Below, one piece after another: positions 15,991-62,772 of a DNA stretch of 64,000 nt; the first letter of the stretch is position 1; each line of letters opens with the position of its first letter. This stretch comes from Phyllobates terribilis (lineage: Eukaryota): positions 134,478,001 through 134,542,000 of the forward strand of contig NW_027362764.1 in assembly GCF_046119375.1 (NCBI RefSeq), in the 5' to 3' direction. The position numbers and the translations under genes are program-made. A model generated the notes under the pieces. It saw nothing but the letters and a program-made list of their open reading frames with translations. It was not told the origin of the DNA and made no database searches.

Positions 15991-16099
15991 CAATAGTTTT
16001 GGCCTAATACCACAGTTTGGCCACTCAGCTCTGCTCGGTTACCATCCATTGTTTTTTTGTGCAAACAACTCCAGAGTTGTGAATTAGTTAACCACCAAA

Positions 16100-19801: not shown

Positions 19802-20127
19802 AAGCTTGATGATTGGTTAAAATCACCCTACCAAACGTTTTAAGCTTTCAAATTACTAATCATGTTTATCTGTATCTTGACTGGAAAATAATTTGGGCTT
19901 TGTAGCAGTGTGCAGCACTGATCCTATTAGGCCATCTATAATAAGCTCCACCAGATTTAAAATTAAAAATAATTTTTAGCTGCATCTAGCCCGGAAAATA
20001 ATTTTGGGGCTCCGAGATGCGCAAGACACATAAGTGCCTTCTTGCTGCACTACCTGCAGCATGACCCTCATATTGTCAGAATTCGAAGTAATCATGACTA
20101 CTGGGTTGCCACACTCTTAGATCCCCC

Positions 20128-21500: not shown

Positions 21501-21599
21501 TACATGTGCTTTTCCACAAAACACCAGCGGTTCACGTAGTGAATCTTACAGTTCTAACTTGCCAACCGTGGTCTGTATGGAATTGTTCAATAAAGGGCC

Positions 21600-23398
21600 C
21601 AAAATTAAGATAACATAGATGGGAGAGGTCTCTATGAATAGGAATTCCTAAGTATTTGATACCCTGTGAGGGCCAGGCAAAGGGAAAGTTGGACTGGATG
21701 GAATCCTATATGGATTTGGGGAGGGAGACATCGAGGGCCTCAGACTTCGCTGCATTGATTTTAAAATTTTACCATGTAACAAAGTGATCTATTTCAGCCA
21801 TAACAGCATGGATGGATATATGTGATTGAGTGATATATACTAGGACATCATCAGCAAATAGAGAGCACTTGTACTCGGTGCCTCCCACCTCAATCCACCT
21901 AATATTGGGGTTATGGCGAATTGATGAGAGCAGGTGCTCCGTCACTAGGATGTATAAGAGAGGGGACAGAGGACATCCCTGCCTTGTCCCATTGGTGATT
22001 GTGAAAGGTGATGAAAATGTTCTGACGCACCCCCTGGGCCTTGGGACACCCGGAGCGGACCCTTTTTGGTGGATGCTGGTGGTTGTAGTCTTCGTGGCGG
22101 CGAACCGGTTCCGTGGCTCAGGGCGGTCAAACCAGTGGCGGAACTATTTATGTGGTTTTGATGTTTAAATGTCCGACTACGCCACCCGTGGATTGCGGTC
22201 AGAGTGAACCGCCGCTACAGGTCAGACCGCTGAGGCTGGTGTTGTGGGTGCAGCAGAGCGTAGCATAACTCCCCACAGGAGGAGTATAGCCTCAGGGCAG
22301 TGTATGCGGAGGATGGGGGTGATGGTGCAGGGCAGCAGCAGTAACGACACGGAGTCAGTGATGCAGTCCAGGGCCTTTACTCACAGTTCTTATTATCCAG
22401 ACCACGTCTGCAGGTAACGGCTGCCCACGTCGTACTGTGCTCACCAGGTGAGGGGCTCAGACAACTCCCAGATAACTTTGGAGCACTTCACAGGACCCCC
22501 TTTGTGTGTCCTTTGTCTGGCCTTTCTTACCAACACTTCTGTCCGGCTGCCTCGGTCCTCCTCTTGGTAAACTTGGCGCCAGTTTCCCTGACCCTATGTG
22601 GTGCTTTCCTAGCGGGTGTAGCGAGGGGCTGCGCCACATAAAATGTCAGTGCCTCCGGTTTCTAGCTGAGGGTCGTTTCCTGCCTCCACTAGTTTGGGGA
22701 CCGGTCTCCCCCTTTGGCCTGACCCCTCCACGCAGGTGGATTCGGGCGTGCGGTGGCGACTCGCCCGTCCGCACCCCTGGGATCCCTTCATTCCTCGTTC
22801 CTGGAGCCTTCTCCGCTCCTCTTCCTTCCTTCTCCCTCTTCCAGGCCTGGGCCTCTGTTACTAGGCCCGCCTCCGGAGCAGAGCTCATGCAGAGCCCCTG
22901 CTCCCTGCCACTTCTGCTCAGACTTCTCTGCACTGAACTAAGATGGTGCCCACCTTTTATACTCCCTTCTCAATGCACCCAGGAACTGCTTCCTCCCTGC
23001 TCCTGCACTACAGGGTTCCCCTTCCTCAGTGTTCCCTCCCCCCACTCCAGCCAGGGACAGGGACTGTCGTGCCCATCTCAGGGGCATATTGGTCGCCCTG
23101 CCCCACGGCAATGTGGTGTAATGCATGCAGGTGTCGGGTCCTGATCCACACTCCATCCTTACCTGAGAGTGAGATATCACACCTCTGGGTGAGGTGCAAT
23201 ACGTCTGTAGCAACCGAGCCCTCAGGGTGCTACAGTTCCATTTATCTTCAGCCTAGGTGACGTATTGCGATACAGGGCCGTGATTTTGGCTATAAAAGGG
23301 TCCCCTAGACCCCTACCCCAAGCTTTTTAAGAGAATCATATATGGCGTGCCAGGAGACTCTATGGAATGCTTTCTCAGCATCCAACGAGAGTATCTAA
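21600..23398 (-). pseudogene. L1-clade reverse transcriptase fragment split by a solo LTR
   Basis: Minus-strand LSLDAEKAFHRVSW (right part) joins KINGT|FSSPFTITNGTRQGCPLSPLLY...LFADDV across the LTR. Confidence 0.85.
22023..23234 (-). mobile_element. Solo LTR, family X
   Basis: Family termini on the minus strand; TSD GTTC at 22019-22022 and 23235-23238. Confidence 0.9.
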
Positions 23399-23504
23399 TT
23401 ACAAATTTTTAACTGCATCTAGCCCAGGAAATACTTTGTGCCTAGTAGCAGTGTCTGCTAGTCAGCGGATTATCCCGGCTGTTAAGCAAGCTACACCACC
23501 TGTA

Positions 23505-23775
23505 GTTTAGACACTTAATTTTTTCAAAGGAAATGCTTCGGGACCATGGGATACTCAGTGAAGAGCATCAGGAGGCACCCCAAGGCATAGGGGCTGGGAC
23601 TGGCAGTAGGATGCCATGCGGTGGACAGCCGAGCTCGATCCTTATAAAAGCTTTTTAACTGCAGCAGCTTTAGTGGACGCTACTGGAGCTGGAATTACGC
23701 GGCTGCTGGCATGAGACTTGCCCTCCAATAGATCCTTGTAAATGGATTTAAAGTGTATTCATTCAAATTAGAGAG
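23505..23775 (-). pseudogene. Diverged 18S rRNA fragment (helix-18/V4 region)
   Basis: GCTTTTTAACTGCAGC...GGAGCTGGAATTAC(C)GCGGCTGCTGGC..AGACTTGCCCTCCAAT.GATCCT...GGATTTAAAGTG is the reverse complement of a conserved eukaryotic 18S segment; similarity continues to TAATTTTTTCAAAG.AAA.GCTTCGGG. Confidence 0.85.
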
Positions 23776-26700
23776 ACAATTTAAATTAAAAAGCTTAGAG
23801 CTGCCTCCACCACAGGGGGGCTCGCTCGACCCACCAGCGGACAGGCACCAGTATTGGGAGAGGGGGGCTGGCCATCAGGGTTCACCGCGGCTCTGGCACA
23901 AACCCGGCGACACGGAGGTGGCACGGGCAGGAGCGGACTGGCCGTGTCGGCTTCTCACTTTTTGGATTTTAGAAGGGCATCACATGCCTATATCTGTGTC
24001 TCCCCCTCCTTTTACTCCTCCACCTCTTTTATTTTCGCATGACTATATGTACTTGTCACTTTTCCATGTGTTAGTTGTGTCTTCTGAGCAGTTTGTCAGC
24101 TTTTGGACACCTTTGAAGGTGTTTTCTATGTGTTTCTATGTGTTTTTGTTTGCCTGCCATTGGTTTTAACGGTGTTCGAAGGTGTTCGACGAACAGTTCG
24201 ACGAACAGTTCGGCGAACACACGGGTGTTCGACGAACCGAACCGAACTCGAACACTACGGGGGTGGCTCAACACTACTCAGGACCCTAACACTACATCCA
24301 CTACACCACATTTCCGGGGGACAGGGCGACAATGCTCCTACGGGAGAGCACAACTGTCCCTGATCCCTGGCTGGAGTGGGGGGGCGACCACCTAGAGAGG
24401 GGGAACTAGGTAGTGGATGGGGTGGAGGACGTAGATCCTGGGAGCACTGAGTAAGAGGTATAAAAGTAAGGAACCATTTTGGTTCAAAGAGAGAAGTGAG
24501 TTCAGTCAGAGGAGGAGAGTGACAGGAGCTGGGGCTCTGTACGAGCTCTGCTCCACAGGCAGGCCGAGTCGCTAGGCCTGAGCCTGAAGGAGAAGGAAGG
24601 GGAGCAGGAAGGCTCCAGGACAGGAACCGAAGGGACCCTAGGGGTACGGGCCGTGCAGCTGGCACCCATATGCCCGCCGCTGCCAGGAGGTGGGGGGGTC
24701 AGGCCAGAAGAAGGGAACCGGATCCCTCAACCAGCAGAGACTACAGGGCTCAACTGGGAACCGGAGGCTGCAGCACTTCAAGTACAGCAAGCCGTCCACA
24801 CCAGCCACCAGGAAGGTAGCCACATAGGGCCAGGGGACGGAACAAACGTCGCCCGCCAAGGCCCGAGGACACTGGACAGAGGTGCCGCTAGGTGTGAGGT
24901 ACAAGAAGAGAGGCCAGAGAGGACACACTGAAGGGGGTCCTGCTAAATGCTCCAGAGATACCTGAGGGTCGACCGAGCTGCTTACTGCGTGAGCACAGGA
25001 CGCCGTGGGCTCTTACACTGGCCCTGTAAGTGGAACTGCTTAACTGTGAGTATAAGATCTGGGACTGCATCATCTGGACTCTGTGATTCTTCTTACACCG
25101 CTACACCTTGCACCATCACCCCCATCATCCATACCCACTGCCCTGAAGCTACACTCTTCCTGTGGGAAGTTACACTACCTTGCTGCGCATATCACCAGCT
25201 TCAGTGGACTGCTCCGCAGAGGCGGTTCCCAATAACCGCATTCCACAGGTGGCATAGTCGGACTATTTAAACCAGACACACATAGACTACCCTGGTTTGA
25301 CCGCCCTGGGTCACGGACCAGGTCACCGCCACAGTGACTACAACCCCCAGCATTTACAAGGCCCGGCTCCGGGTATCCCCACGGCCTAGGGGGCGCGTCA
25401 ATAATAGATAATGATACATGGTCATCCTATGCTATGATCGGGAATGCGTCCATGGGTAATGTGAGTGGCAACCCCGACTGCAAAAGCAGTCACTAGCCTG
25501 AGAGAATACAGGCAGAAATAACTAAGGTTTTTAAAGCTGTCTGACCATCAGTGATCACAATGTTACGCCATGTCCTAATGATAGTATTGTCCCCGAGGGC
25601 GAGGAGACTTGTGAAGACCATGCCATAACAGGTCCACCATCAATGAGCTGCCCTGTGGTGATCAGCTGTTATTGAAGAGTCAGCTGATGACAAGTCCTAA
25701 GGGAAGGTCAATGCAGAGAAAACAAAGCATTGCACACCGAGTTGTCTCGATAATGTATGAATAAACCAAGTCCTTCAGGGGCCCAGTGGTTTACTGCTCT
25801 GCTTAATATCTTACATAACCTAACATGGATTTTCTTAACTGACAACCCCTTTAAGAACATGTGCATAATGGAAAGACTTCACCTCTCCCTACATGTCTAT
25901 TCTTGTAAATCAAGTAAATATTATATAGTAATACAGAAATTTTATTATATAAATATTATAGTAAATGTTTAATAAAATATAGTAAATTTTGTAAATATTT
26001 TCCATGAAATAATTCTGCATCATCTTTTCTGAAAACTCCGCATTCTGTGGCTCTTCTGTTACTTCTAGAAATGTATGAATACATTAACTAGCTGTTACTA
26101 TGGTATTTGTCAAAGGGGTGTGTCCCTACAGAGTCTGAGGCTGCAGACACATCCGTGTGTCACGGTGCGTAATGCATGGACCCTCCGTAGATCTCCTGAC
26201 CCAGACTCAACAATCTCATAGGCTTATATCAGGCTGTCAAATTTGGGTCAGGAAACCTGCATCCAGTCTGTGCATCAGTCAGTTCTTGGACCGCCAAACG
26301 CTCTGCACTGATTGAGGTGTCAAGGCCCGCTCCCATGGCCATATTTTATGCTATGAGTGCGATCCGACAAAACATCAAATTGCGCTGGGACCAATGTTAA
26401 TCTATGGGGCCGTGCATATGTTCGATTTTTTTTCTTTGGACAGATCCAGTCCGAGGAAAAATTTTCTTCATGTCCGAATTTAATCTGATATTCAGAACAC
26501 ACTCAGCCATTCAAGTCAATGAGTTCATGGAAAGCATTGGACTACACTCGGATGACATCTGACTGAGTGCAGTCCGATTTCCATGGATGGACAGAATGGA
26601 GAGACTATATGCTCATATGCTTCTAGCAGGGTAACACCTTCAATTGGTTATACCTAGTTATCAATTTATTCAGAAACTACAAGAAGGATTTACAGAAGAA

Positions 26701-27747
26701 GGGTAAAACTACTATCAAGAAATTTTATTTTAAGTTGAATGCATTTTTTTTAAATAAAACAGACATGTCACGAGATCTGGTGGATTAAAGACATTCTAGG
26801 ACTAATTTGTTGGATATATCAGTTTTATGGCTCGCTCAGATGAGTACAATCTGATAAAAAGTGCACTCATACCAATGTTTTCAATGAGGCGGTGCAGATC
26901 TGGGTATTTTTTCTCAGCTGTATTCGGCAAGAGACAAAAAATTGCAGCATGCTTCAATTTCAATCTGAAATCTAATGGGTGCGAGAGAAAAATCGCAAGT
27001 TATACGGACCATCCATATGGCATCCAATTTTTACATATATATTACAATTCTGTAATATGGGAAACTGTAAATGGTCCTGTAAATGATTACTAGCTGCTGC
27101 CGTAAAAAATACGGATTGTATATAGATGACAAGTGAGAAAAAAACTGTCCCACTTTTCTGGATGAGAATGGGACTGATTTTTGTGCGCTCGTATGACCTC
27201 AGCCTTATACGTGTATATACTGTAGAGGGAATAATTACTGTACATGTAGAGTTTGCACTGACCGTACATTTGAAGCAAAAGCCTGACTCCTGGATGCGCC
27301 TTTAACTATATATTATAATATGTAGATCACAAGTCAGCAATAGCTCCCTTTAATAAGGGAATAAACTGTTTTTCTTGACATCCTACTCAAGGTGACTGCA
27401 ATGAATGTGATGAATAGTCGGTTAATGTGTAACAGCCGGAAGCTTTGCTTTCAGTCCCCACGACTCACTATTTTGTATTGGGAAGTATAACTCATTAGTT
27501 TTATTAAGTTTCTTTAGCTAGCTTTCAAGGGAAGACGTTCTTTCTCTTGTAATGTGACGACAGCTGTTACCTTGAATACCGTTATAAAAATAGTCACTCC
27601 TTGCATCAAGGCGGGAGGAGGAGGAAAAATAATTGTTTAGAAATGTTCAGCTTTGACTTTGCCAAACTCAGCTGGGTGTGTACAGGCCTGACATGTTCTT
27701 GAACACATTTACTTGTTCTGTTACCAGCAGTTAAAACTTTGTATTAC

Positions 27748-29326
27748 AGGGGTTGTCTGGCCTTGGGATACAAGTCTACAGTCTCTCTATGTGACTGCAG
27801 GCTTGTGAATCCTCACAGAGTGCAGTGTGCTTGCTGTCAGGATTCTCCAGTGCCAGAACCAAGAGCGGGCAGTCATGTGATGGCAAGAATGTGAATTGCA
27901 TATGTGGCGCCCCTGCTGGTTCAGTCGCCACAGAGGTACTGCATCTCACCCAGAGGTGTGGTATCTCACTCTCAGGTAAGGAAGGAGTACTGCCCGGGAC
28001 CCTAACACCTGCATCCAACACTACACTACTCCAGACCAGTAGGAGGGGCAAGATGTGTCGCTTTCCTGCTGAGCCCTGTCCCTGGCTGGAGTGGGGGGAA
28101 CCAAAGTAGGGGGAACCATGTAGTGGGTGTGGGTGGACTAAGTAAATCAGGGGAGCACTTGTTAGGAATAGTATAAAGAGGGAAGCCATCTTGGGTGTGG
28201 GAGTTCAGTCAGAGGAGGACAGTGAGAGGAGCAGGAGCTCTGTAGGAGCTCTGCTGAGGAGGAGGGCCTAGCCCGAGAGGCCCAAGACTGAAGAGAGAGA
28301 GGAGCAGGAGAAAGGCTCCAGGAGTGAAGAAAGGATCCCAGGGGTACGGGCAGTGCTGGAGGCCACCCATATGCCCGAGTCTACCAGGCGGTGGAGGGAT
28401 CAGGTCGCAGAGGGGACCGGCCCCTAACTAGTGAGAATTACAATATTCAACTAGGTAACCGGAGGCTGCAGCATTTCAGGTACTGCAGCCTCAAGCCACA
28501 TCTATCTCACCAAGAAGGTGGCCATAGAGGACCCAGGGGACAGAGAAGACGTCGTCCGGCAAGGTCCGCGGTCACTGGATTGGGACACTAGGTGTGAGGT
28601 GCAGGGAGACGGCCAGAAGGAACACACAGAAGGGGGTCCCGTTATGTACTCTGGAGGTACCTGAGGGTTGGCTGAGCCCCTGCCCGGTGAACGCAGCACG
28701 ATGTGGGAAGTTATGATCTGCAGTTGTAACCAGGAGCAAAGTAAGAACTGTGAGTAAATCCGGAAGACTGCACCCCACTGTCTCCGTCAATTATTACTGC
28801 TGCGCCATCACCCCCTCCACTACACTGCACCACGAGTGCTACTTCTATAACAGCAACATCTACACTGCCCTGGAGCTAAGCTCTACATGTGGAGAGCTAA
28901 ACCAACTCTGCTGCATTAACACCAGCTCCAGAGGACCTGCTCCGCAGCGGCGGCTCCCTATAGCCGCATACCACAGGTGGCGTCACAAACTGTATATAAG
29001 AACTTTAATTCCCCTGTAAATATCCCCTTTTTATTGACCGCCCTGGGTCACGGACCGGGTCACCGCCACTGTGACATCTCCCCTAGCAACGACCGGCTCG
29101 ACACCGAGTACCCCAGGGCCCAGGGGGCGCGTCACATACTTCCAGCCACATTCTGACTTGATGTATCCGGCCTCTCTCATTTCATTTGTGTTGAATGATG
29201 CAACGCACATCTAGTCGGCACTTGATCGTATATATGCGCATGCACCCGCCAGATCCCAGAGAATCCTAACAGTGAGGGCACTGCGCACTGTGAGGATTCA
29301 CAGTACCTCAAGGCCAGACAACCCCT
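27748..29326. mobile_element. T2/Kolobok-like MITE interrupted by a solo LTR
   Basis: AGGGGTTGTCTGGCC / GGCCAGACAACCCCT+TTAA. Confidence 0.75.
27903..29134 (+). mobile_element. Solo LTR, family X
   Basis: TGTGGCGCCCC...GGGGCGCGTCA; TSD CATA at 27899-27902 and 29135-29138. Confidence 0.9.
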
Positions 29327-29809
29327 TTAAATTACATGGTATTTTAGTATATCTGTTTAAAGGGAACCTCCAACGTTAGAGACATTACACATATGCACAT
29401 TGGACACATGCTCCCCGATACACCTTTATAGAGCACAGTACGGTTTTGGATTGGGTGCATAATCGTGGAGATTTAGGCTCTGGCTGCATGGCGATTTTGG
29501 CTGTGACATCGGTTAAGTAGCCAAAAATCTCGCTATGCTGCTGCTATATCCCAGTGTAATGCAGGCAAACAGGTTTGCATTGTGACCCCAGGCTACTGTG
29601 GTAAGCAAAGCACAAAAATCCAACTGGTTCTGACTTTCTCTGCCATGGTCGCAGTACAGGCTGCAATGTGACCCCTTTTCCTTGTGTATAATGTAGCAGC
29701 TGCACAGAGCAATATTTGGCCATATGACCTGTGCTGCAAACAAATTCACCTTATAGCATAAGCCTTGCTAATTTAAGGTCCATGTATGGATTGGCAAGAG
29801 AGGCAACAA

Positions 29810-31004
29810 CAGAAAATACGTTCTTAAGAAAAACTAAGTACACCCTCTTTAAGTTCTATAGTTTTAAGTATCTGAACATAGTGAAAAAAAATGATCTGGT
29901 TCTTAGAAAGCCTTAAAATTAGGTAAATATAACCTCAGATGACAAACTACAGGGTCATTATTTATTTAACAAAAAATAGGCCAAAATGCAGAAGACGGGC
30001 ATGAAAAATTAAGTACACTCCATGAATCAATAGCTTGTAGAACCACGTTAAGGCTATGTGCCCACGATGCAGAAATGCTCCGGATTTTTCCTGAGCGTTT
30101 CTGCATCTCCCTGGCATAAAAAAGCGCATGCGGATTGTACATGCGGATTGTACATGTGTTTTTCCTGCCAGGGACATGAAGATGTGAAGCGTTCTTCACA
30201 TGCATTTCCGCATGCGGGTTGACAATCGCTTTCCAAGCGATTTTAGCATCACTTGGAATGTGCTTGACAACTTGGTCACACTATATAAATCCATGCAACC
30301 GGCATGGATTTATATAGTGTGACCCGAGACAATGTAAAAAAATAAAAAATAAATCTATACTTGCCTTCCGATGGTCCCCGCAGTCTTACTTCGCTTGGTG
30401 CTGACTGCCGGCAGATCGCAGTACACTGCACTGAAGGACCTGCCGACGTCAGCGTCGCGTGACCCGTCACATGACTATGACGTCAGCGCAGGTCCTTCAG
30501 TCCATTGCGATTTGCCGGCAAGGGAGGACGAGCGTACCGGGGGCAATCAGAAGGTAAGTATCATATTTATTTTTTATTTTATTCTTTTTTTTACAGGTTC
30601 TATGGTACCCAGGTCCAGAGGAGAGTCTCCTCTCCTCTAGATCTGGGTACCATCCGCACATTAGAACGCATGGAATGCGCATCTATATATACAGTGATAC
30701 GTAATCCATGCGATCTAATGCAAGTCAATGGTGGCGAAAACGCAGCACTTCCGCAAAATAATTGGTAGTGCTGTGTTTTTTTCCGCAATGATAATCCGCA
30801 GCGGAAATTTCCGCAGCATGTGCACAGCACATGCGGATTATCATTGGGGAACATGGCAGGCCTTCTACCATGCGGTTTTAAGCGTTTCTGCAGCGTTTTT
30901 GCTGCTGCGGAAACGCTTAAAAAAATGCATCGTGGGCACACAGCCTAACAGCAATAACTGAATGTAATCAGATTCAGTATGACTTTATCAGTCTCTCACA
31001 TTGT
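29810..31004 (+). mobile_element. Tc1 5'-end relic interrupted by a Harbinger MITE
   Basis: AAGTACACCC and AATAGCTTGTAGAACCAC..|CAGCAATAACT..TATGACTTTATCAGTCTCTCACA are Tc1-like leader sequences continuous across the MITE. Confidence 0.55.
30052..30945. mobile_element. PIF/Harbinger-like MITE
   Basis: TAA|GGCTATGTGCCCACGATGC ... GCATCGTGGGCACACAGCC|TAA. Confidence 0.85.
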
Positions 31005-34631: not shown

Positions 34632-36648
34632 TGTGCATGCAAGTGTTAACATGATTTCTTACTTTTACATTTGTGTTCTTTTACTTTATAGGGTTTTCGG
34701 GTTTTAAAAAAAAATTGATGGCTATGAATGTATAATTGGTAATGGCCCCTTCCACTAAAATACTGCAGGTAAGGATCAGCTGCTCTGATGGATATACAAT
34801 AAAAGGGCTGTGGCACTCCAATACTGCTGATCTGTGGGGGTCCATCCAAGGACAGCTACAGCTTCAATCTGATTTACCTCACTCCATTGCTGGAATCACA
34901 GTCACACAGCTCAGTACTGCTGTATAGTGTCTTCCATGCTGTTGCTTCTGTCTGTTTTGCTCACCAAAAAAGTAATTTCCCAAATTCAATCAAGATGATT
35001 TTGCAAAAAATAAGTACAGCCCATTAAAAGTCTTAAGAGCAAAGTGAAAGTTTAGACTACAAAATTCAAATGAACAAGAATTCAACCACGGGTCAGTATT
35101 ATTTTTTATTAAACTGGTCTTCAGCAGACAGGTGACTATAAAATGGTGTTACTTAACAAAGAAAAACATTTCACGCTGTCAGCAATGGCACCACATAGAA
35201 GAGAAGTGCCATAAGACCTGAGAAAGAAAATAATTTCTTTACACAAGAAAAAAGTGATACAAAAATGTTAAAAAGATAGAACTGCATCCATTTCATAGAG
35301 ACATCCAGGCCTACCACGGAAGTTAACACCTAAACAGGAACGTCTTCTGATGAGAAGGATTGAAGAAAAGCAACATTTCATTGATGATATCATGAATTCA
35401 CAGATGTATTTGTGGCGCCCCTGAGGGTTCGGTCGCCACAGAGGTACTGCACCTCACCCAGAGGTGTGGTGTCTCCATTCTCTCAGGTAAGGAAGGAGTG
35501 CTGCACGGAACCCCAACACCTACATCCAACACTACACTACCCCAGGCCAGCAGGAGGAGCAAGACGCAATGTAGTTTTCTGCTGAGCTCTGACCCTGGCT
35601 GGGGTGGGGGGAACCCAAAGTCAGGGGGAACCAGTAGTGGGTGTGGGTGGAGGAAGAAGTTCATGGGAGCACTCATACAGTAAAGATATAAAATAGGGAA
35701 GCCATCTTAGGGTGGCAGTCTAGTAGTTGTTGAACAGCTTGGGAGCAGAGTCTCTCTAGGAGCTCTGCTCCATTTCAAGGGCCCAGGACTGAGGCCCAGG
35801 AGGGGAGCAGGGAGTAGGCTCCGATCTACTGAAGGGATCCTAGGGGGTACGGCGAGTGCAGATGGCACCCGTACACCCCGAACCTGCCAAGTGTCAGCAG
35901 GATCTAGGCCGCAAGAAGGGGATCGGCCCCTGGCCCAGTCGTGCAGCTTCAAGCCTCGGCTGGAAAAACCGGAGGCTTCAGACTTCTATAGCAGAAGCCA
36001 AACTCTCACTTCAATCCAAAGAAAGGTCAAGCAGGTCTGTGCAACTCCAACGGACAGGGGGGACCCCGCAGCACCCAAATAGGATTCACAGTGAGAAGCG
36101 CAGGGCAGGAGGGAGTAAAGACCCAGCGTGAAGTCGGTCTAGGAAGGTACATATGAAAGTGGGGTTCTGCCAGGCACACCTGAGCTGCCTGAGGAAGGAC
36201 TGAACCCCTGCCCTGTGAACGCAGTGTGACGCGGGAGGCTTGCACCAGTACTGTGCACCTGAGGAACTTGAACAGAACTGTGAGTAAACTCGGATGACTG
36301 CACTGAACTGCCTCCGCTCCTTCATTTCGACGGTACCTTTTCCCTCCCTGCACTACTACGCCCAGCACACCTCCTCCATCTTTCCTTACACTGCCCTGAG
36401 GCCTGCTCCACCTCTGGGGAGCCATTCCATCTTAAGCTGCCCTATCATCTGCCTCAGAGGACTGCCGCAATGCTGGTGATCCTCACCAGACACCACAGGT
36501 GGCGTCACGACAATTTTCCCCAACCAAAATATTCCCCCTTTTTGAGTGACCGCCCTGGGCCACGGACCGGGCCAGCCACCGTGATATCCCCCAGCAACCA
36601 GAGGCCCGGCTACCGAGCACGCCACGGCCCTGGGGGCGCGTCATCTTC

Positions 36649-36666
36649 TGGCGTCACGAGCAGGAT
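36649..36666 (+). promoter_or_regulatory. Primer-binding site, tRNA-Ser(CGA)-type
   Basis: TGGCGTCACGAGCAGGAT, 5 nt after the LTR; complementary (about 1 mismatch) to the vertebrate tRNA-Ser(CGA) 3' end as recalled. Confidence 0.8.
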
Positions 36667-37321
36667 GCGTGACCAGCCCGTTATCAGTGGGTATTGTGTG
36701 CCTAAGGACTGTTTTACTACATTAAATGTGGTGCCCACCCCAGAAGAACGGGCGCCATTATGTGCGTGTTCAGAGACAACAATATGGAACCTCCCATCGT
36801 GGGTCGGGTGCCAGAATGGCGCCAAAAGCATACCCTGCCCCTTGCACCAGTGGCCGTCACAGGGAGTGACCGACAGCAAATCGCCATGGGACCGCCCCCA
36901 AAAGAGGAGAGGAGGAGGAGGAGAAAAGGAATGGCGACAGGGTGTGGTCTCGACCCGTCTAGCCAGACCGCATCCGGCAGCCAAGATGGAAGGGAGCAAA
37001 AACCAAGCCTCTGCCTCTGGCCTGCCACTGCACCGAGCCACCCCCTCCACCATGGAGGAAAATATGGAGAAGCTGTCCCCGGAGGACGTGGAGTTCCTCG
37101 AGAGCGAGGTCCTCGAGCTGGGCCAGCAAGTGGAGCGAGCCCAGCAGGCAGCGGTCACCCGGTGGAAAAGTGAGCTGCTGGAGAAACTAGCCGCCCGCCG
37201 GAAAGTGAGACCGGATGCCAGCAGCCGCACACCAGCCCCGGCGGAGCTCGCAGGAAACCAGGAGGCCGTGTGGGACACAGGAGCAGGTAGGAGAGAATCC
37301 CCAGCCCCGACCTGCTCCTGA
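36665..37321 (+). CDS. Internal ORF, 5' part (218 aa from the ATG; predicted coiled coil)
   Basis: MEENMEKLSPEDVEFLESEVLELGQQVERAQQAAVTRWKSELLEKLAARRK heptad-like segment; same frame as the downstream ORF. Confidence 0.5.
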   Translation: MRDQPVISGYCVPKDCFTTLNVVPTPEERAPLCACSETTIWNLPSWVGCQNGAKSIPCPLHQWPSQGVTDSKSPWDRPQKRRGGGGEKEWRQGVVSTRLARPHPAAKMEGSKNQASASGLPLHRATPSTMEENMEKLSPEDVEFLESEVLELGQQVERAQQAAVTRWKSELLEKLAARRKVRPDASSRTPAPAELAGNQEAVWDTGAGRRESPAPTCS

Positions 37322-37345
37322 GCCTCCTGCCCCAGCCCCCGCCAT

Positions 37346-38191
37346 ATGCTGCCACACTCTGGCCGGAACCGTTATGCAGCCCGGAACCTCCACCCCCGGG
37401 CGCGGAACCCCGAAAAACCCCCACCAAGGGCCTTCCTGGAACCCTCGCCTCTGAGCGCTGCACCGGAGGGTTCCCCATACAGCGTCCTTCCGGAACCTCT
37501 GGTCCAGGGCGCTGAAGCTACGGGCCTGTTGCTGGGAGCCCTCCCGCCGCCTCCGTCATTTGAGTGGATCTACGGCGCGCCGGTCTTCGACTGGTCCGCC
37601 CGTTACGAGGATCAGCAGCCGTGCCCGCTCCTCCCAATACCAGCGCCCCCGGTTGCCTGCCCCGGCGGAGAGGAGTTCTGCTGGGACAACCGGGGGGGGA
37701 ATCTGATGGGATTCTCCCAGGAGACAGAGGCCACCGCCCAGCAGAGTAAGGAATTCTGCCGGCGGGAGCTCCGGCAATTGAAGAGGGAGCGACGCGCGCG
37801 GGAAGCGCGCAATGAATGCCTGGAGGCCCGTGACAAGGCCGCCAAGGCACAAGTCCGCCAGGCGGAGACAGCCAACCCCAGCCCCCGTGAGGAGGGCCTC
37901 ATTGTCAAATTTAATCTCAAGGCTGGGTGGGGCTTCATCCGTAGTCCCGAGTTCAACAGGGACATTTTCGTCAACCGGCGGGATGTGGAGCCTGAGCTGG
38001 AGGAAGGCCATCCTGACCGGAACCTGTATCCGGGAGACCAAGTCACGTTCACCCGGCATCATGGTGAGCGTGGCTGGTATGCCCTGCAAGTGTACCATGC
38101 CAACAAGGATGAACTGCTGCAGGAAGTCCCTCGTGACCCGGCTGGGTCAGGGAAGAACGAAGAGTACCCTAGGAGGGGTCCCCAGTACTAG
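37346..38191 (+). CDS. Internal ORF with a C-terminal cold-shock domain
   Basis: EGLIVKFNLKAGWGFIRSPEFNRDIFVNRRDV...LYPGDQVTFTRHHGERGWYALQV (37889-38092) aligns by eye with Y-box CSD; RNP1-like GWGFI, RNP2-like DIFVN. Confidence 0.85.
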   Translation: MLPHSGRNRYAARNLHPRARNPEKPPPRAFLEPSPLSAAPEGSPYSVLPEPLVQGAEATGLLLGALPPPPSFEWIYGAPVFDWSARYEDQQPCPLLPIPAPPVACPGGEEFCWDNRGGNLMGFSQETEATAQQSKEFCRRELRQLKRERRAREARNECLEARDKAAKAQVRQAETANPSPREEGLIVKFNLKAGWGFIRSPEFNRDIFVNRRDVEPELEEGHPDRNLYPGDQVTFTRHHGERGWYALQVYHANKDELLQEVPRDPAGSGKNEEYPRRGPQY

Positions 38192-38754
38192 GGTAGTACT
38201 GGACTGCACATAACTGAATATAGTCACCCGTCCGGGTGCTGAGTTTATCATGTTGTTTTTTTATAATATGTTTCCTTAGGTACCTGTAAGGGTATAGAGA
38301 CAATAGGGTAGAGGACAGTGATCTCCCTACAAACTTTCCATTGTAAATAAGTTTAGCACTTCTTAAAGTGCATCCTATTGGTTTTATAAGTGCAATCCAT
38401 ACTTCAGAACAAAAACCCGTTTGGCGTGGCGGAAGACGAGGTCCAGTATCTGGATCATCTATGCCCTGCAGCCATGCCCAGGGCCTACGTTGAGGGTTTG
38501 CGGACGGGTCCCTCATTCTGCTGCTGTTGCACCCTGGTGCAGAAACTCGCTTGAAAATGTTTTATATGAAAATTGTTTTATAGGAATAAGTGCTCTTAAG
38601 ATATTTTATATTCCATAATGTAACATTTAAAGTGATGTGCCTCCCAAAAAGGGAAGAATGTTTTTACAGTCTTATATGCGAATGCATTCTAAAAACTTTG
38701 CATGTCATATATCCCTGTTTTTGCTTTGTTCCAGCCCGCGGACGTGCTGTGTTT

Positions 38755-38767
38755 TACCGGGGGGGAA
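38755..38767 (+). promoter_or_regulatory. Polypurine tract
   Basis: ACCGGGGGGGAA abutting the 3' LTR TGT. Confidence 0.75.
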
Positions 38768-40854
38768 TGTGGCACCCCTGAGGGTTCGGTCGCCACAGAG
38801 GTGCTGCACCTCACCCAGAGGTGTTGTGTCTCCCTTCTCTCAGGTAAGGAAGGAGTGCTGCACGGAACCACAACACCTACATCCAACACTACACTACCCC
38901 AGGCCAGCAGTTGGAGCAAGACGCAATGTAGTTTTCTGCTGCGCTCTGACCCTGGCTGGGGTGGGGGGAACCCAAAGTCAGGGGGAACCAGTAGTGGGTG
39001 TGGGTGGAGGAAGAAGTTCATGGGAGCACTCATACAGTAAAGATATAGAATAGGGAAGCCATCTTAGGGTGGCAGTCTAGTAGTTGGTGAACAGCTTGGG
39101 AGCAGAGTCTCTCTAGGAGCTCTGCTCCATTTCAAGGGCCCAGGACTGAGGCCCAGGAGGGGAGCAGGGAGTAGGCTCCGATCTACTGAAGGGATCCTAG
39201 GGGGTACGGCGAGTGCAGGTGGCACCCGTACACCCCAAACCTGCCAGGTGTCAGGAGGATCTAGGCCGCAAGAAGGGGACCGGCCCCTAGCTCAGTCGTG
39301 CAGCTTCAAGCCTCGGCTGGAAAAACCGGAGGCTTCAGACTTCTATAGCAGAAGCCAAACTCTCACTTCATTCCAAAGTAAGGTCAAGCAGGTCTGTGCA
39401 ACTCCGACGGACAGGGGGGACCCCTCAGCACCCGAATAGGATTCACAGTGAGAAGCAGGAGGGAGTAAAGACCCAGCGTGAAGTCGGTCTAGGAAGGTAC
39501 ATATGAAAGTGGGGTTCTGCCAGGCACACCCGAGCTGCATGAGGAAGGACTGAACCCCTGCCCGGTGAACGCAGTGTGACGTGGGAGGCTTGCACCAGTA
39601 CTGTGCACCTGAGGAACTTGAACAGAACTGTGAGTAAACTCGGATGACTACACTGAACTGCCTCCGCTCCTTCATTTCGCCGGTACCTTTTCCCTCCATG
39701 CACTACTACGCCCAGTGCACCTCCTCCATCTTTCCTTACACTGCCCTGAGGCCTGCTCCACCTGTGGGGAGCCGTTCCATCTTAAGATGCCCTATCATCT
39801 GCCTCAGAGGACTGCCGCAGCGCTGGTGATCCTCACCAGACACCACAGGTGGCGTCACGACAATTTTCCCCAACCAAAATATTCCCCCTTTTTGAGTGAC
39901 CGCCCTGGGCCACGGACCGGGCCAGCCACCGTGATATCCCCCGGCAACCAGAGCCCCGGCTGCCGAGTACCCCACGGCCCTGGGGGCGCGTCATATTGCT
40001 CTTTATTGAAAGAGAAGATGCTACCATCACTCCATGCCCTTGGTAGACGTGCACTTTTAAAACATGACAATGAACCAAAACACACATTTACGGCCACTGT
40101 TACATTTCTGAAGAAGAAAGTGTGAAAGTGATTCAGTGGCCAAGTATGTCTGCTAATATGAACCCAATTGAACACCTATTGGGAATTCTGAAGAGAAAAG
40201 TTGAGCCTCACTCTCCATCCAGCATCCAGGCTCTAAAAGAGGTCATTCTTGAAGAACAGAAAAAGATAGATGTTGCAGTATGTCACCAAATTGTTAATAG
40301 CATGTCTAGAATACTTGGTGCTTTCCTTAAAAATCATGGAGGAATACTAGATGTAGCATTATTTGGTGTAGGGTGTATTCATTTTTGCATCAACTAATTT
40401 GAGTAAAACTTTCTATACTGAAAGTTATATTATTAACTTTACTTTCATGTTGTATGTTAAAAAAAGTGTTCTATGTAACTTAGTCTTGTCAAAATTTTGG
40501 AAACAGTTCTTGTGTTCAGTGACATATTGATTAAAATCTTATTTTTCATAGGGGGTGTACTCATTTATGCTGAGCACTGTATGTATCCTCTTGAGGTTTG
40601 GAAATGTACTCCTACTATATGGTTGTCTTTCCATTTATCTTCACAATTTCTTCTTGCATTACAAAAGTAGATCATAATCTAAACTTTAGTTAGAACCTGT
40701 GATTCTTACTATGCCATATGAAAACCTACATGCACTCAAGTCTCCTTGTGTGTTTTCCCTGCATGTGAGTTTCCTAAACCCCTATTACATGCACAATTGC
40801 ATTCTATCATAATCTTCACCGAACGTCCACAAATAATATGACAAGTGGCAGCAA

Positions 40855-42096: not shown

Positions 42097-43406
42097 TATT
42101 ATAATTCTAGCAAAGAGCAGATACATTGTAATAATTGATTTTCTGTGTCTGTTAAACAAACACTGCCTGTCAATCTTGGAAAAGTAAGTATTTCTCAAGA
42201 TGCTTCTTTGTTCCTTTCTGTTCGGCAAACTTGTCCTCCAGTGTCCTCTATGAATAAATGTTTACTTTATATATCCATCATCTGCTATAAAACAAGCAGA
42301 AAAGAAAAGCCATATTGATCAAAGCAGCCTCCCAGTACAGCAGGATAATATAAGTCCTAACACTGAGAGTTTGCATAGTTGACATAAGATATTAAAACTA
42401 ACCGACCTATCATTTGTGGACTTATGAAATACGTGTCCATAAATGTCACGGTAAGCTATGAATAAAGAATAAAGCCGTGTTAAAGTAATATTCATGGCAG
42501 GTTCAGGCTTTCTTTGAATACAGCATTATCTTTATACAGTACTTGTGGAGCGAGATTTCTGTATTATCACACACTCCCTAATATTACTTCGTAACTTTTT
42601 AGTAGTTGGTGGGAAAAACACTAATTCTAACATAGGAATGCTGTTGCTTTAAATTTCTCAGTGGTTTATTAATGCAGGCATAAACCACTGTAAAGTCCAT
42701 GAAAACAAACAGGCCTTCCTTGGCAAAAATGATAAACAAAAGAAAACAGCACAGTCCAGTTGCCTGTGGGAATTCGTCCACACAAGGTTAACAGAACACC
42801 CACGGTTCAGGCTAGCACAAGCAGCTCTTTCCTCTGGAGTTAGCCTCTCCAGATACACTGAACTCCTAATGCCTCAGCAGGCTGTGTATTTAAACCCCAG
42901 ACCACATCCTGACTTCCCACCTGTTAGAATCTTGCTGTTAGTTTTTTTTTCCTTTGCTGGTCACATGACCTTGTTGGCCTATTTAATCCTGCTCCGCCCT
43001 TCTGGCTTTGCTGGACTTCATTGTATATCTACTTTCTAGCTAGCCTGTGCTCTGTATCTAACTCTGTTAGTTTGCTTGGTCTACGGACCTCTATGTTCTA
43101 TCTATTTTGTTTGTTCGTCTGTCTGCTACTATTTCTGTTAGGAGGTGTCCCATATTCCTCCCAGTCCTTAGTACTTGTAGGGATTCCCTCCTCACATCTA
43201 TAGGTCTCCGTACAGACTAGATTAGGACTTTAGCAGGTCTGATCGCAGGATCAGGTTCCCTGTTACATCGTAGGGATTCAGCTGAGTCTTATAGTAGGGA
43301 CAGATCTCCTCTCTTTCCTTAGCTTTGGTAGCAGAACATAACAGTAAGTCCAGCCTGCAAATTCTCTAAGGAAAGATTTTTTTTTTTTTTTTTTTTGTGT
43401 TCCATC

Positions 43407-44318
43407 ATGGTGTCGGTTCAGGATTTGGCTAAACACCTGCAGGGACTCTCTCTGGAAGTGGCCGAGCTCCGTCAGCACGTGAGTAACTGTCCTGGAGCAT
43501 ATTTCTTGGAGCCTAAGGTATGTTTGCCGGATTTATTTTTTGGTGAACATCGAGAATTTTTTTCATTTAAAAATGCTTGCTTATTGTATTTTCGTTTGAG
43601 ACCCAAGTCCTCTGGGGATGAATCCCAGCGCGTAGGGTTCATAATGTCACTTTTGCGCAAAGAGCCTCAGGAGTGGGCCTTTTCTTTGCAACCTAGTGAT
43701 ACATGCTTCAGATCAGTGGATAGTTTTTTTTCTGCTTTAGGACTATTATATGATGATCCTGACCGTGTGGCATCAGCTGAGACTGAGTTGAGACGTTTAA
43801 AACAAGGATCAGGTAATGTCGAAAAATATTGTACTCATTTTCGTCGTTGGTCCACTCAAACAGGGTGGAACGATTCTGCTCTGAAAAGTCTATTTCTTGC
43901 TGGGCTCAGTGAAAGGGTTAAAGACCTGCTAATTGCTTATCCTACACCTGAGGATTTGCAACAGGCTATGCAATTAGCTATACGGGTGGATAGAAGACTG
44001 CGTGCTAGGGTTAATGAGAGCAAATCCTCTGCTATGTCAGTTTCTGGTTATGATAATGTGTGTACTAACAGTGGTGAACCGATGGAGATTGGATCGGTGG
44101 CACCTCGCTCTCAAGAAAAAGACCGTCGTTTTTCAGAAGGCTTGTGTTTCTATTGCGGAAAATCTGGTCATTTGATTAAAGGCTGTGAGCTTCGTATGAA
44201 GAAAGAAAAAAAAAATGGTCAGTCACGCCCGTATTGCCTGTTTAAATTCCAAGGGTATATTTTTAGCTGCTTCCACGATTGCTCAGGAAAAATTAATGGA
44301 ATTTCGGGTGTTTGTTGA
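43407..44318 (+). CDS. gag: Gag (retrotransposon gag domain + CCHC knuckle)
   Basis: EPKVCLPDLFFGEHREF, LKQGSGNVEKYCTHF, EPMEIG, CFYCGKSGHLIKGC. Confidence 0.92.
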   Translation: MVSVQDLAKHLQGLSLEVAELRQHVSNCPGAYFLEPKVCLPDLFFGEHREFFSFKNACLLYFRLRPKSSGDESQRVGFIMSLLRKEPQEWAFSLQPSDTCFRSVDSFFSALGLLYDDPDRVASAETELRRLKQGSGNVEKYCTHFRRWSTQTGWNDSALKSLFLAGLSERVKDLLIAYPTPEDLQQAMQLAIRVDRRLRARVNESKSSAMSVSGYDNVCTNSGEPMEIGSVAPRSQEKDRRFSEGLCFYCGKSGHLIKGCELRMKKEKKNGQSRPYCLFKFQGYIFSCFHDCSGKINGISGVC

Positions 44319-47300
44319 TTGCGGGTCTACACTGAATGTAATTGATGGGGGATTCGTGGAAAAACTTAATTTAAAACCTGAACCTTTATCATCCCCCATT
44401 GCTGTGGTTTCTGTGGATGGCTCCCCTTTGAAGAATATTTCTCTCAAGGTCAGTGAATTTCCTCTCACTATTAATGGTGTTCACCATGAGAAATTGGATT
44501 TGGTAGTGTTGAATAACTTGCCTTCTCCAGTAATATTGGGTTTGCCCTGGTTAAAATTTCACAATCCTGTACTGGATTGGTCTACCAGTGAAATTAAATC
44601 CTGGAGCCATAAATGTTATGACAAGTGTTGTAACGGGCGTATTGCAGCTTTGGATAGGGGAGAATTGCCTGTTCCTATTCAGGATTTTTGGAGAGTTTTT
44701 TCTGAGAAGGAATCGCAGGTTTTGCCTCCCCATAGAGACTATGATTGTTCTATTGAATTTGTCCCTGGAGCGACTCTTCCTAAAAGTCGTTTATTTAACC
44801 TTACCATTCCTGAGAGGAAAGCTTTGGAGGAATACATACAGACAAGTTTGGCCGCCGGTCACATTAGGCCCTCTAAGTCTCCTGTGGCGGTTGGATTTTT
44901 TTTTGTAAAAAAAAAGGACGGCGGTTTACGTCCTTGTCTGGATTTTCGTGAGATTAACAAAATTACGGTACGCAATCCTTACCCACTGCCATTGATTCCT
45001 GATCTGTTTAACCAGTTATTGGGGGCCAAGTGGTTCTCTAAAATTGACCTTAAGGGGGCATACAATCTGTTGCGCATGAAGGAGGGTGATGAATGGAAGA
45101 CTGCTTTTAACACTCCTGTGGGTCATTTTGAGAATCTGGTTATGCCTTTTGGTCTTACTAATGCTCCTGCATTTTTTCAGAATCTGATTAATGACATCCT
45201 TAGACCTTTGATCGGTAAAAATGTGGTTGTGTATTTGGATGACATTTTGATTTATTCGCCAGATCTGGAGTCTCATTGGCGGAGCGTGCGTGAGGTATTA
45301 CAGTTATTAATGGACAATTCGCTTTTTGCTAAGCTGGAGAAATGTGAGTTCGTTGTACAGAGAATTAGTTTTTTGGGCTACATTATCTCCAGCAAAGGTT
45401 TTGAGATGGATCCGGTTAAGGTTCAGGCTGTGCAGGAATGGCCTAGGCCTATTGGTTTGAAATCGATACAGAGGTTTTTGGGTTTCGCCAATTACTACAG
45501 AAAATTCATAAAAAAATTTTCTAGTATTGTCAAACCTCTGACTGATTTCACCAGGAAAGGTGCTGATGCGGTTCAGTGGTCTTCTGAGGCCATTGAAGCT
45601 TTTGTGTATCTCAAGGAGAGGTTCACCTCTGCTCCCATCCTTATGCAGCCTGATGTTACTAGGCCGTTTTTGGTTGAGGTTGATGCTTCCTCTGTGGAGG
45701 TTGGCGCAGTATTGTCTCAGGATAACGGGGATGGATTACATCCCTGTGCCTTTTTTTCAAAAAAATTTTCGGAGACTGAACTGAATTACGATATTGGTAA
45801 TCGGGAATTATTGGCTATTAAACTCGCATTTGAACACTGGCGCCACTTCTTGGAAGGTGCGGAATTTCCCATTCAGGTTCTTACGGATCATAAAAATCTG
45901 ATATATCTTGATGCTGCCAAGCGCCTGAATGCCCGTCAGGCTAGGTGGGCACTGTTTTTCTCGCGGTTTAATTTCTCCGTTACTTACATCCCTGGTACTA
46001 AGAATGTTAAGGCGGATGCCTTGTCTCGCAGTTTTTCTCCCATAGTCGGTGCTGAGAAAGAGGAAAACATTTTACAAGAAGGTGTTGTGATAGCTGCTTT
46101 AGACTCCGTTTTGGAAGATGAGATTCTTAAAGCTCAGGAGAATGCCCCATCTAACACTCCTCATGGGAGGTTGTTTGTGCCTGGGACCTTTAGGAGAGAT
46201 TTGTTTGTTGAGTGTCACGAATCTCGGTTGGCAGGTCATCCCGGAATCTCTGAGACCAAGAGACTGGTGGGTCGCAGTTTTTGGTGGCCTGGATGGCAGA
46301 AGGAAGTCATTAAGTGGGTGCGCCAATGTACTATATGTGCTAGATCTAAGTCCTCACATACTCCTGCTGCGGGGTTGCTTTGTCCTTTGGAGGTCCCCAG
46401 TGCTCCTTGGACACATTTGGCTATGGACTTTATAACTGACCTTCCCTCCTCTGAGGGTTTTACTGTCATCTGGGTGGTCGTGGACCGTTTTAGCAAGATG
46501 TGTCACTTGGTTCCCTTCGTCAAACTGCCCTGCGCTAAAACTCTCGCTAAGGCCTTTGTCAAGGAAATTGTCAGACTTCATGGCGTTCCTACTGACATTG
46601 TTTCTGATAGGGGTCCTCAGTTCGTGGCTCGTTTTTGGCGTGCCTTTTGTGACAGGTTGGGAATTCATTTGTCGTTTTCGTCCGGATATCATCCTGAATC
46701 TAATGGCCAGACAGAAAGGAAAAACCAGGATGTTGAGCAGTTCTTGCGTTGTTTTGTGGCAGACAATCAAGAGGGGTGGTCTGAGTTTCTGCCACTTGCC
46801 GAATTTGCTCTGAACAATCATACATCTTCTTCTGCTGGTTGTTCGCCTTTTTTTTGTTGTTCTGGGAGACATCCGTCGTTTGGGTCGTTCTCCAAGTTGG
46901 GATCTGCCGTGCCTGAGGAGGAGAATTTTTCCGGTGATTTGGAAAGAGTTTGGACGGATGTGCGTGGTAATCTTCAGGAGGCCAACAGAAAATCTAAAGA
47001 CTACTTTGATAGGAAACGACAGGAGGTTTTGTTCGCTGTTGGTGACATGGTTTGGTTGTCCTCTAGGAATCTGCGGTTGAGGATTCCTTCTAAGAAATTG
47101 GGTCCCAAGTTTGTAGGGCCCTTTAAGGTGCTTCAGGTTGTCAACCAATCTGCTGTTAGGTTGGAGGTTCCTACCTCCTGGAGAATTAATCCGGTCTTTC
47201 ATGTCTCTCTGTTAAAAAAAGCTGTTGTGTCGGATGGTGACGCCTCTGCCTCTGTTCCTCCGGTGGTGGAGGACGGGGAATATGAAATTTCTCGCATCCT

Positions 47301-47475
47301 TGACTCTAGACGGTATAGAGGTAGTTTGCAGTATCTTGTGGCCTGGAAAGGTTTCGGACCCGAGGATAACTCTTGGGTTAGGTCAGATGATGTTTCCGCG
47401 TCCAGACTTATCAGAGCGTTTCACAGGAGATTTCCTGATAAGCCTGGTCCTAGGGGATCCGGAGGATCCTCTTAG
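44215..47475 (+). CDS. pol: Pol: protease, RT, RNase H, integrase, chromodomain (1086 aa, uninterrupted)
   Basis: VDCGS, YLDD, EVDAS, GHPG..C..C, MDFITDLP/SDRGPQF/ESNGQTER, YEISRILDSR..QYLVAWKGFGPEDNSW. Confidence 0.97.
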   Translation: MVSHARIACLNSKGIFLAASTIAQEKLMEFRVFVDCGSTLNVIDGGFVEKLNLKPEPLSSPIAVVSVDGSPLKNISLKVSEFPLTINGVHHEKLDLVVLNNLPSPVILGLPWLKFHNPVLDWSTSEIKSWSHKCYDKCCNGRIAALDRGELPVPIQDFWRVFSEKESQVLPPHRDYDCSIEFVPGATLPKSRLFNLTIPERKALEEYIQTSLAAGHIRPSKSPVAVGFFFVKKKDGGLRPCLDFREINKITVRNPYPLPLIPDLFNQLLGAKWFSKIDLKGAYNLLRMKEGDEWKTAFNTPVGHFENLVMPFGLTNAPAFFQNLINDILRPLIGKNVVVYLDDILIYSPDLESHWRSVREVLQLLMDNSLFAKLEKCEFVVQRISFLGYIISSKGFEMDPVKVQAVQEWPRPIGLKSIQRFLGFANYYRKFIKKFSSIVKPLTDFTRKGADAVQWSSEAIEAFVYLKERFTSAPILMQPDVTRPFLVEVDASSVEVGAVLSQDNGDGLHPCAFFSKKFSETELNYDIGNRELLAIKLAFEHWRHFLEGAEFPIQVLTDHKNLIYLDAAKRLNARQARWALFFSRFNFSVTYIPGTKNVKADALSRSFSPIVGAEKEENILQEGVVIAALDSVLEDEILKAQENAPSNTPHGRLFVPGTFRRDLFVECHESRLAGHPGISETKRLVGRSFWWPGWQKEVIKWVRQCTICARSKSSHTPAAGLLCPLEVPSAPWTHLAMDFITDLPSSEGFTVIWVVVDRFSKMCHLVPFVKLPCAKTLAKAFVKEIVRLHGVPTDIVSDRGPQFVARFWRAFCDRLGIHLSFSSGYHPESNGQTERKNQDVEQFLRCFVADNQEGWSEFLPLAEFALNNHTSSSAGCSPFFCCSGRHPSFGSFSKLGSAVPEEENFSGDLERVWTDVRGNLQEANRKSKDYFDRKRQEVLFAVGDMVWLSSRNLRLRIPSKKLGPKFVGPFKVLQVVNQSAVRLEVPTSWRINPVFHVSLLKKAVVSDGDASASVPPVVEDGEYEISRILDSRRYRGSLQYLVAWKGFGPEDNSWVRSDDVSASRLIRAFHRRFPDKPGPRGSGGSS

Positions 47476-57241: not shown

Positions 57242-61608
<4,367 letters not shown>

Positions 61609-62693: not shown

Positions 62694-62772
62694 GTTCTTT
62701 TTGTTAATGTTCTGAAAACAGTGAAAAAAGCTTAAAAAAAAATCTTCAAAATGCGCGCGCCGGTAGGCGCGC

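Follow-up and report, generated by a model that had tools for sequence, protein, structure and literature searches.

Within a window of 64,000 nucleotides from the poison frog Phyllobates terribilis (contig NW_027362764.1, positions 134,478,001 to 134,542,000, forward strand; genome size 10.6 Gb), positions 35411-39993 hold a dead copy of a big family of non-autonomous long terminal repeat (LTR) retrotransposons, whose single gene ends in a cold-shock domain (CSD). That this is a complete LTR element without gag or pol is close to certain. Alignments place the 5' LTR, of 1,233 bp and with TG...CA ends, at 35411-36643 and the 3' LTR at 38768-39993; the pair is 96.1% identical, with 41 substitutions over 1,226 aligned sites and a Kimura two-parameter distance of 0.034. 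A TATT target-site duplication is legible in the sequence on the left (35407-35410) and on the right (39994-39997), and the host site is a remnant of a Tc1-type transposase, interrupted by the insertion. The primer-binding site (36649-36666) is of the tRNA-Ser(CGA) type, 17 of its 18 nt agreeing with the 3' terminus (plus CCA) of a tRNA-Ser(CGA) gene in the P. terribilis genome, and a polypurine tract lies at 38759-38767. This cis architecture of paired LTRs, duplication, primer site and polypurine tract had been read correctly in the original prediction, which was made from the letters of the window alone.

The gene (36986-38191) probably starts at ATG 36986 and stops at 38189-38191, a span of ~400 codons. 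It encodes an N-terminal helical or coiled-coil segment (37055-37204), a Pro-rich linker with conserved Trp-containing motifs (37478-37672), a conserved WD-x-x-G-x-[DN]-LMGF motif followed by a predicted 49-residue Arg/Glu helix (37682-37873), and the CSD, a five-stranded barrel with a Y-box-like loop length (37886-38098). The original prediction had listed these interior domains, and had missed that the gene of the window copy is broken: a TGA at 37319-37321 lies inside a segment, ~37,300-37,415, that is out of frame with respect to other copies. Other natural copies read open through ~500 codons. No gag, protease, reverse transcriptase, integrase or CCHC family was detected by Pfam in the four internal frames scanned, and the CSD was the only family retained for the window and the natural open-frame copies, so that the claim of a non-autonomous element held. 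Large retrotransposon derivatives (LARDs) have a non-coding interior and terminal-repeat retrotransposons in miniature (TRIMs) are very short; the present element, at 4.6 kb and with a coding gene under purifying selection, belongs to neither class. The N-terminal helical segment, with invariant D, L, W and E residues, matched no known family. An overlapping 155-aa frame (36706-37173), having neither a Pfam match nor a clear third-position excess of transversions, was rejected as a gene. A word-indexed protein search returned no match to the window frame, and one and two Phyllobates-labelled gene models with other queries, which may derive from the same genome and are then not independent. Contigs of four sequencing runs, none of them recorded as RNA, span the element.

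The CSD itself was matched by PF00313 at 37892-38095 (E 1.4e-7), the score of 31.7 bits lying above the gathering cut-off of 27, as had been anticipated. The score varies among copies, from 39.5 bits in a young one (L121) to 17.8 in L083, below the cut-off. An AlphaFold model built from 22 natural copies (mean pLDDT 78.8) has the 49-residue helix followed by a five-stranded barrel, with pLDDT 80-92 across the CSD. The best Foldseek matches of the modelled domain are the CSDs of CspA, YB-1, YBX2, Unr and Lin28 (for CspA, E 3e-6, TM 0.85 on the target, rmsd 1.9-2.2 A). Ranked by sequence profile, the top eight relatives of solved structure are all YBX1 or YBX2 (E 3e-13 to 2e-12, 51-53 bits), and the best bacterial Csp reaches 39 bits with the same family profile. 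Profile and predicted fold thus indicate that the gene ends in a genuine CSD, by profile nearest to YBX1/2.

Compared with host YBX1/YBX2 (PDB 6a6j, 6ktc, 7f3i), the element domain has the same fold and the same loop length, and the RNP1 motif and the Phe of RNP2 are common to both. These aromatic residues are as originally described; the RNP2 His, and also the equivalent of the beta-1 Trp of YB-1, are replaced (family signature FVxRR), which leaves the aromatic RNA-binding patch incomplete. The element CSD is ~25-30% identical to host YBX1/YBX2 and lies near the C-terminus after two helices, whereas in YBX1/YBX2 the CSD precedes a long charged tail. With this identity, and with its CSD no more than ~30 residues from the C-terminus, the protein falls outside the Y-box protein family. 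Strong divergence from YBX bears out the earlier view of an old capture as opposed to a recent retrocopy.

The CSD is under strong purifying selection, with a dN/dS (pairwise Nei-Gojobori) of ~0.1, far from the neutral value of 1, as the prediction of a maintained domain would have it. Within three subfamily groups, comprising 74 copies, it is 0.12-0.17, and between most of these groups synonymous sites are saturated. Because the 74 copies had been chosen partly by protein score, the estimate was repeated on copies chosen by primer site alone, giving 0.08 for seven old copies, 0.09 for nine young ones and 0.10 for the window copy against the old ones. Third positions account for 58% and 56% of transversions in the old and young copies picked in this way, and since the excess persists in transversions alone, CpG decay is not the source of the low ratios. 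The ratio climbs to 0.20-0.35 in the closest pairs, as expected where post-insertion decay dominates. Elsewhere in the gene it is 0.23 for the N-terminal helix, 0.29 for the Pro-rich linker and 0.28 for the tail; upstream of ATG 36986 it is 0.37-0.68, and in shifted frames 0.9-2.2.

The C-terminal 121 residues, used as a query, brought up 37,974 first-look candidates, and all 150 that were scored matched, at 83-100%. At least one window-type LTR stood beside the gene in each of the 20 candidates examined with flanks, 13 of which had a long repeat pair, 94-98% alike. Scanning the genome with PF00313 revealed subfamilies at successive degrees of divergence, the most distant of them 46% identical in protein to the window copy. 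In the youngest copies (L121-L130) the LTRs are 99.7-100% alike (9/9 with an LTR pair), internal frames run to 676-695 codons, target duplications are 4 bp and gag and pol are missing; their primer differs from that of the window copy and is probably of the tRNA-Ser(AGA/UGA) type. Exact patterns of LTR end plus primer site number 1,854 for the window type and 42,177 for the young type, with 0 in reversed controls. A stop codon interrupts the C-terminal block in 10 of 74 aligned copies. The family spans old to very young copies, and the CSD, as the original prediction required, is not confined to the window copy. As a rough estimate from a sample at one chromosome end, in which 10 of 20 sites held CSD elements, the 42,177 young sites correspond to ~21,000 copies (binomial range ~11,000-31,000). 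The young wave alone would then make up ~1% of the assembly, and it escapes surveys based on pol. The window also contains LTRs of the same superfamily, solo or partial, at 27903-29134, 22269-23227, 25101-25400 and 12456-12541; their identity to the element LTR is 67-91%.

The probable source of the missing enzymes emerged from the primer sites. Behind forty window-type (old) sites on chromosome C1, picked so as to cover the spacer variants, lay 10 CSD elements, 2 partial CSD elements, 4 chimeras by rule (5 including L077), 14 cases of gag with downstream pol (some of the pol from nested insertions), 7 of gag only and 3 without a coding match. Of twenty young-type sites, taken as every fifth among the first 100 on the list, 10 opened onto a CSD element (partial in 1 case), 8 onto a gag-pol element and 2 onto neither. 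The gag-pol partners are Ty3/gypsy elements with a PNMA-like capsid, a zinc knuckle and protease-reverse transcriptase-RNase H-integrase order. Passengers and partners have in common the U5, the primer site and the first part of the leader, at 70-84%, and the last ~270 bp of the 5' LTR (U5) are 76-84% identical to those of the autonomous partners; U3 is not shared and is wholly different between subfamilies and helpers. In the young wave, LTRs are 98.5-100% alike in helpers and passengers both. The helper is therefore likely to be a co-amplifying autonomous Ty3/gypsy family that would supply capsid, reverse transcriptase and integrase, and we infer that in an ancestor within the helper lineage gag-pol was replaced by the CSD gene after an old Y-box capture. 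The same junction, joining helper leader and gag start to the 3' half of a passenger, recurs at three loci, and argues that helper and passenger have recombined. Two kinds of amplified helper/passenger chimeras are present (L064, L067 and L077; L056 and L081), the three of the first kind having one common junction with an 8-nt overlap.

The cis signals of the two partners have changed together. An 11-nt sense copy of the 5' end of the primer site lies within U5 (36500-36510), ~150 nt upstream of the site itself, and a U5 segment at 36581-36586 is complementary to both. The U5 copy is of the CGA type at 33 of 40 old sites and of the AGA type at 20 of 20 young ones; the types are never crossed, and the typing holds for passengers and helpers alike. 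The complementary segment switches too (29/40 in the old set, 18/20 in the young). The joint change of primer site, copy and complement is a single evolutionary event, for which CpG decay is not the explanation, and it suggests an RNA switch that would hide or free the primer site. At three other loci (L156, L157, L159), 3' halves of tRNA-Ser with CCA are embedded in other DNA, as expected from reverse-transcribed primer tRNA.

Two further signals lie in the 3' untranslated region (UTR). One is a motif at 38331-38390, common to old and young CSD elements and in part to old helpers. The other is a 110-nt block (38407-38516), 84-96% identical among old CSD elements and their old autonomous partners; between passengers and helpers of the old wave it is 87-89% identical, and adjoining hairpins are common to both. 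It occupies the position in which retroviral export elements lie. In 57 sequences, some of them duplicates, the block is predicted to be able to fold into four stems arranged as two pseudoknots, and a divergent helper subfamily (loci L078, L085 and L090 examined) keeps two of the stems through compensatory changes. Folding of single sequences is unremarkable (z -0.6 to -1.9), inspection found no fit to hammerhead or HDV-like layouts, and an Rfam search of the element gave three chance-level matches, none at threshold. A GCAC/GTGC to GCGC/GCGC 'covariation' in a 3' UTR hairpin was dropped, since CpG decay explains it.

A second LTR family of the genome, whose DNA is unrelated to the window family beyond the primer site, likewise has a CSD gene in place of gag-pol. 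It has LTRs of ~1,030 bp, a 4-bp duplication, a tRNA-Ser primer site and a CSD gene of ~600 codons, is often in tandem, and is represented by 519 exact LTR-end/primer sites (loci L147-L155, L180-L197). The CSD was seen at 13 of 18 sampled sites, and its PF00313 score in one copy (L148) is 21.0, below the cut-off. None of the 18 sites led directly into gag-pol, and no helper of this family was found among them. At C4:791.48-791.52 Mb (L101, L144-L146, L153), about three clustered CSD copies related to both families, with the RNP2 His kept and no LTR seen, represent either an older relic or a domesticated gene.

Beyond this genome, a profile search of 1.84 billion representative proteins, with 10 of the 150 listed matches looked up, returned single-domain proteins of P. 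terribilis (possibly from the same genome and then not independent), Ranitomeya variabilis, R. imitator, Anomaloglossus baeobatrachus (2) and Bufo bufo; the Ranitomeya, Anomaloglossus and Bufo records are XP_077147014, XP_075187427, XP_075194515, CAJ0923454 and XP_040278526. With a CSD-only profile the frog matches score 67-124 bits, against at most 45 for ordinary Y-box and bacterial CSDs (158 proteins scored). Proteins related to that of the element thus occur in other poison frogs and a toad. The Bufo bufo protein (P0144, XP_040278526.1), annotated 'Y-box-binding protein 2-A-like', carries the CSD signature of the element family and scores 70.8 bits; it is possibly a mis-annotated element or a domesticated copy. 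Lineages that share less than 40% identity retain the fold, as do those of other frog families. Among themselves the three CSD groups of the genome score 58-145, higher than the 22-62 they reach against host CSDE1 or against a Y-box copy in decay, and one old capture fits. A tree of 27 CSD rows, with long branches and no intact host YBX row among them, unites the window family in one group (80/97) and is compatible with one capture or several. An intronless CSDE1/Unr retrocopy, partly duplicated and interrupted by other insertions, lies at C1:734.44 Mb (L091-L096).

What the protein does for its element can be framed from these data. With about even confidence, we propose that the passenger protein binds and protects the element's own RNA while the passenger co-amplifies with its Ty3/gypsy helper copies. 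The helices would oligomerise the protein, and several CSDs would then coat the RNA, much as host YB-1 stabilises human immunodeficiency virus (HIV) and murine leukemia virus (MLV) genomic RNA; RNA so protected would survive in germ cells or early embryos and, by way of the common cis signals, would compete for helper particles, where helper capsid, reverse transcriptase and integrase would copy it. PMC6040738 describes RNA-dependent support by YB-1 of the production of HIV, MLV and mouse mammary tumor virus (MMTV), with stabilisation of HIV genomic RNA, and because a host YB-1 stabilises viral RNA, a private Y-box domain would be expected to lengthen the life of passenger RNA and enlarge its share of particles. 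High gypsy expression in ova of the poison frog Oophaga pumilio, not specific to the CSD family, is described in PMC6278860. The benefit would fall mainly in cis, on the RNA that encoded the protein; the reason is one of argument, namely that, if it did not, derivatives without coding capacity would displace the coding copies and constraint on the gene would weaken.

Several points weigh against RNA protection in cis. Copying does extend to chimeric and non-coding derivatives (among 40 old sites, 5 chimeras and 3 without a coding match; 2 among 20 young). The young wave is without the 110-nt block, which is therefore not a universal packaging signal, and the chimeras may come from DNA-level deletion between neighbouring insertions, so that they do not prove co-packaging. 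The low dN/dS comes from pairwise values for non-independent pairs, many near saturation, and from no codon model. Finally, as the equivalents of the YB-1 beta-1 Trp and RNP2 His are missing, binding by the CSD may differ or be weaker, an objection tempered by the host CSDE1 domains of P. terribilis, which likewise have no beta-1 Trp.

The near 1:1 ratio of recent co-amplification (10 and 8 of 20 sites), and the joint switching of primer site, U5 copy and complement in both elements, would also suit a protein that acts in trans to the benefit of helper and passenger alike, the pair forming a cooperative system of two parts. Such a protein might, for example, sequester tRNA fragments or piRNAs that target the primer site, or might refold the switch between U5 and primer site; cooperative complexes have been proposed for wheat Wilma/Sabrina/WHAM (PMC9744471). 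Any passenger, however, is expected to co-switch its cis signals, and non-coding cheaters should replace a gene whose product is shared, yet dN/dS stays at ~0.1 over saturated synonymous distances; we regard the trans route as unlikely, if deserving of attention. In a wider version, likewise unlikely, a cooperative frog Ty3/gypsy pair would join an enzyme-bearing element to a passenger whose only product is a repurposed Y-box RNA chaperone needed by both, for RNA protection or for freeing the primer site from silencing small RNAs; after a single capture in an early hyloid frog, the domain would have reached two or more unrelated LTR backbones and contributed to the multi-gigabase expansion of poison-frog genomes. 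The conserved N-terminal helix, for its part, might dock on helper Gag, with passenger RNA bound to the CSD, so that helper particles are diverted much as satellites divert them. A faint profile match between this helix and the one that follows the capsid in Gag (hhalign probability 3.4%, E 0.013) would agree with such an adaptor, but it is no better than matches to generic coiled coils, the passenger protein has no significant homology to Gag profiles (best E 0.012), helper Gag has a zinc knuckle of its own, and the passenger already bears the helper's cis signals, so that we think an adaptor improbable. The zinc knuckle supplied by helper Gag, together with the passenger's lack of a capsid or Gag homology, also makes the original suggestion of a substitute for nucleocapsid unlikely.

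A transcriptional role, in which the CSD would bind single-stranded or Y-box DNA of the LTR and raise transcription of the element, appears very unlikely. Basic stretches are present in the reading frame, and effects of YB-1 on viral LTR promoters are reported in PMC6040738; the same source favours RNA stabilisation and gives an affinity far higher for RNA than for DNA. A nuclear activator would moreover act in trans, and U3, as noted, differs wholly between subfamilies and helpers. Last, many copies are broken, including that of the window, and the gene might be passive cargo with a functionless CSD, or might serve only as an open frame through which the RNA is translated and so remains stable. 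Selection at the amino-acid level is nevertheless strongest in the CSD, where dN/dS is 0.08-0.13; it is 0.4-0.7 in the sequence upstream of the ATG and 0.9-2.2 when the frame is shifted. The fold has also been kept across the divergent lineages and frog families described above; the contrast in dN/dS has already largely refuted passive cargo, to which we give hardly any credence.

The family departs from the usual view of non-autonomous LTR elements as non-coding or Gag-only parasites. Here the one gene is for a host-derived RNA-binding domain on which selection is as strong as on host genes, and it is kept across synonymously saturated subfamilies and two unrelated backbones, with relatives in three frog families. 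Protection of RNA in cis would link the dependence of retroviruses on host YB-1 to an element that has seemingly taken over the factor for its own use, and offers a testable candidate reason for the escape of Ty3/gypsy elements from control in giant frog genomes.

Other elements share the window. The gag and pol frames of a chromodomain-bearing Ty3/gypsy element at 43332-47475 are open, and almost identical copies of it lie elsewhere; this chromovirus, which belongs to a different family and has no LTR match to the CSD element, was rejected as the helper. A hAT transposase with a BED finger occupies an open frame of 1,237 aa at 16088-19801. On the minus strand, 57242-59800 and 61731-62792 hold a CR1-type LINE ORF2 and an esterase-bearing (GDSL/OSK-like) ORF1, with a Tc1 insertion between them.

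Among known systems, LINE-1 ORF1p offers a functional analogy, being an element-encoded protein with a coiled coil and an RNA-binding domain that acts in cis on its own RNA; its domain is an RNA recognition motif and not a CSD, LINE-1 is a non-LTR autonomous element, and no homology is expected. Coding LTR elements without pol have been described in Xenopus (PMC4585706), where 1A11 and Xretpos(L), like the present family, have no pol homology and a long open frame. In the text consulted, the 71-kDa protein of 1A11 is called Gag-like with no mention of a CSD, and the ORF copies number in the tens with no helper described, against thousands of copies here. Wheat RLG_Sabrina and WHAM, with autonomous RLG_Wilma (PMC9744471), are high-copy Ty3/gypsy passengers that share LTR ends and primer site alone with their helper; in some Sabrina variants gag-pro is replaced by unrelated short proteins, with long co-evolution in waves, as in the frog. 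The replacement proteins of that plant system are, in the text consulted, orphan or capsid-like and not a host RNA-binding domain, and no selection test was seen there. A different RNA-binding domain is described in PNMA-type metaviruses in PMC11011659. In birds, PF00313 occurs within LTR-bounded elements, in 46 endogenous retroviruses (ERVs) and through several captures, for which the authors suggest adaptive convergence (PMC12287698); according to the sections seen, these have retroviral gag-pol-env backbones, scattered CSD positions, few copies and no selection shown, whereas the window family, high in copy number and dependent on Ty3, has no gene besides that of the CSD. The combination was not found in full-text searches of the literature, nor by term look-up in the available text of PMC6278860, PMC12822217 and PMC12208295, a scope outside which Repbase/Dfam, supplements and subscription papers lie, so that a library entry may exist. 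Each ingredient, then, has a precedent, and it is their combination, a CSD gene as the sole gene of a high-copy, helper-dependent LTR family, that may be new.

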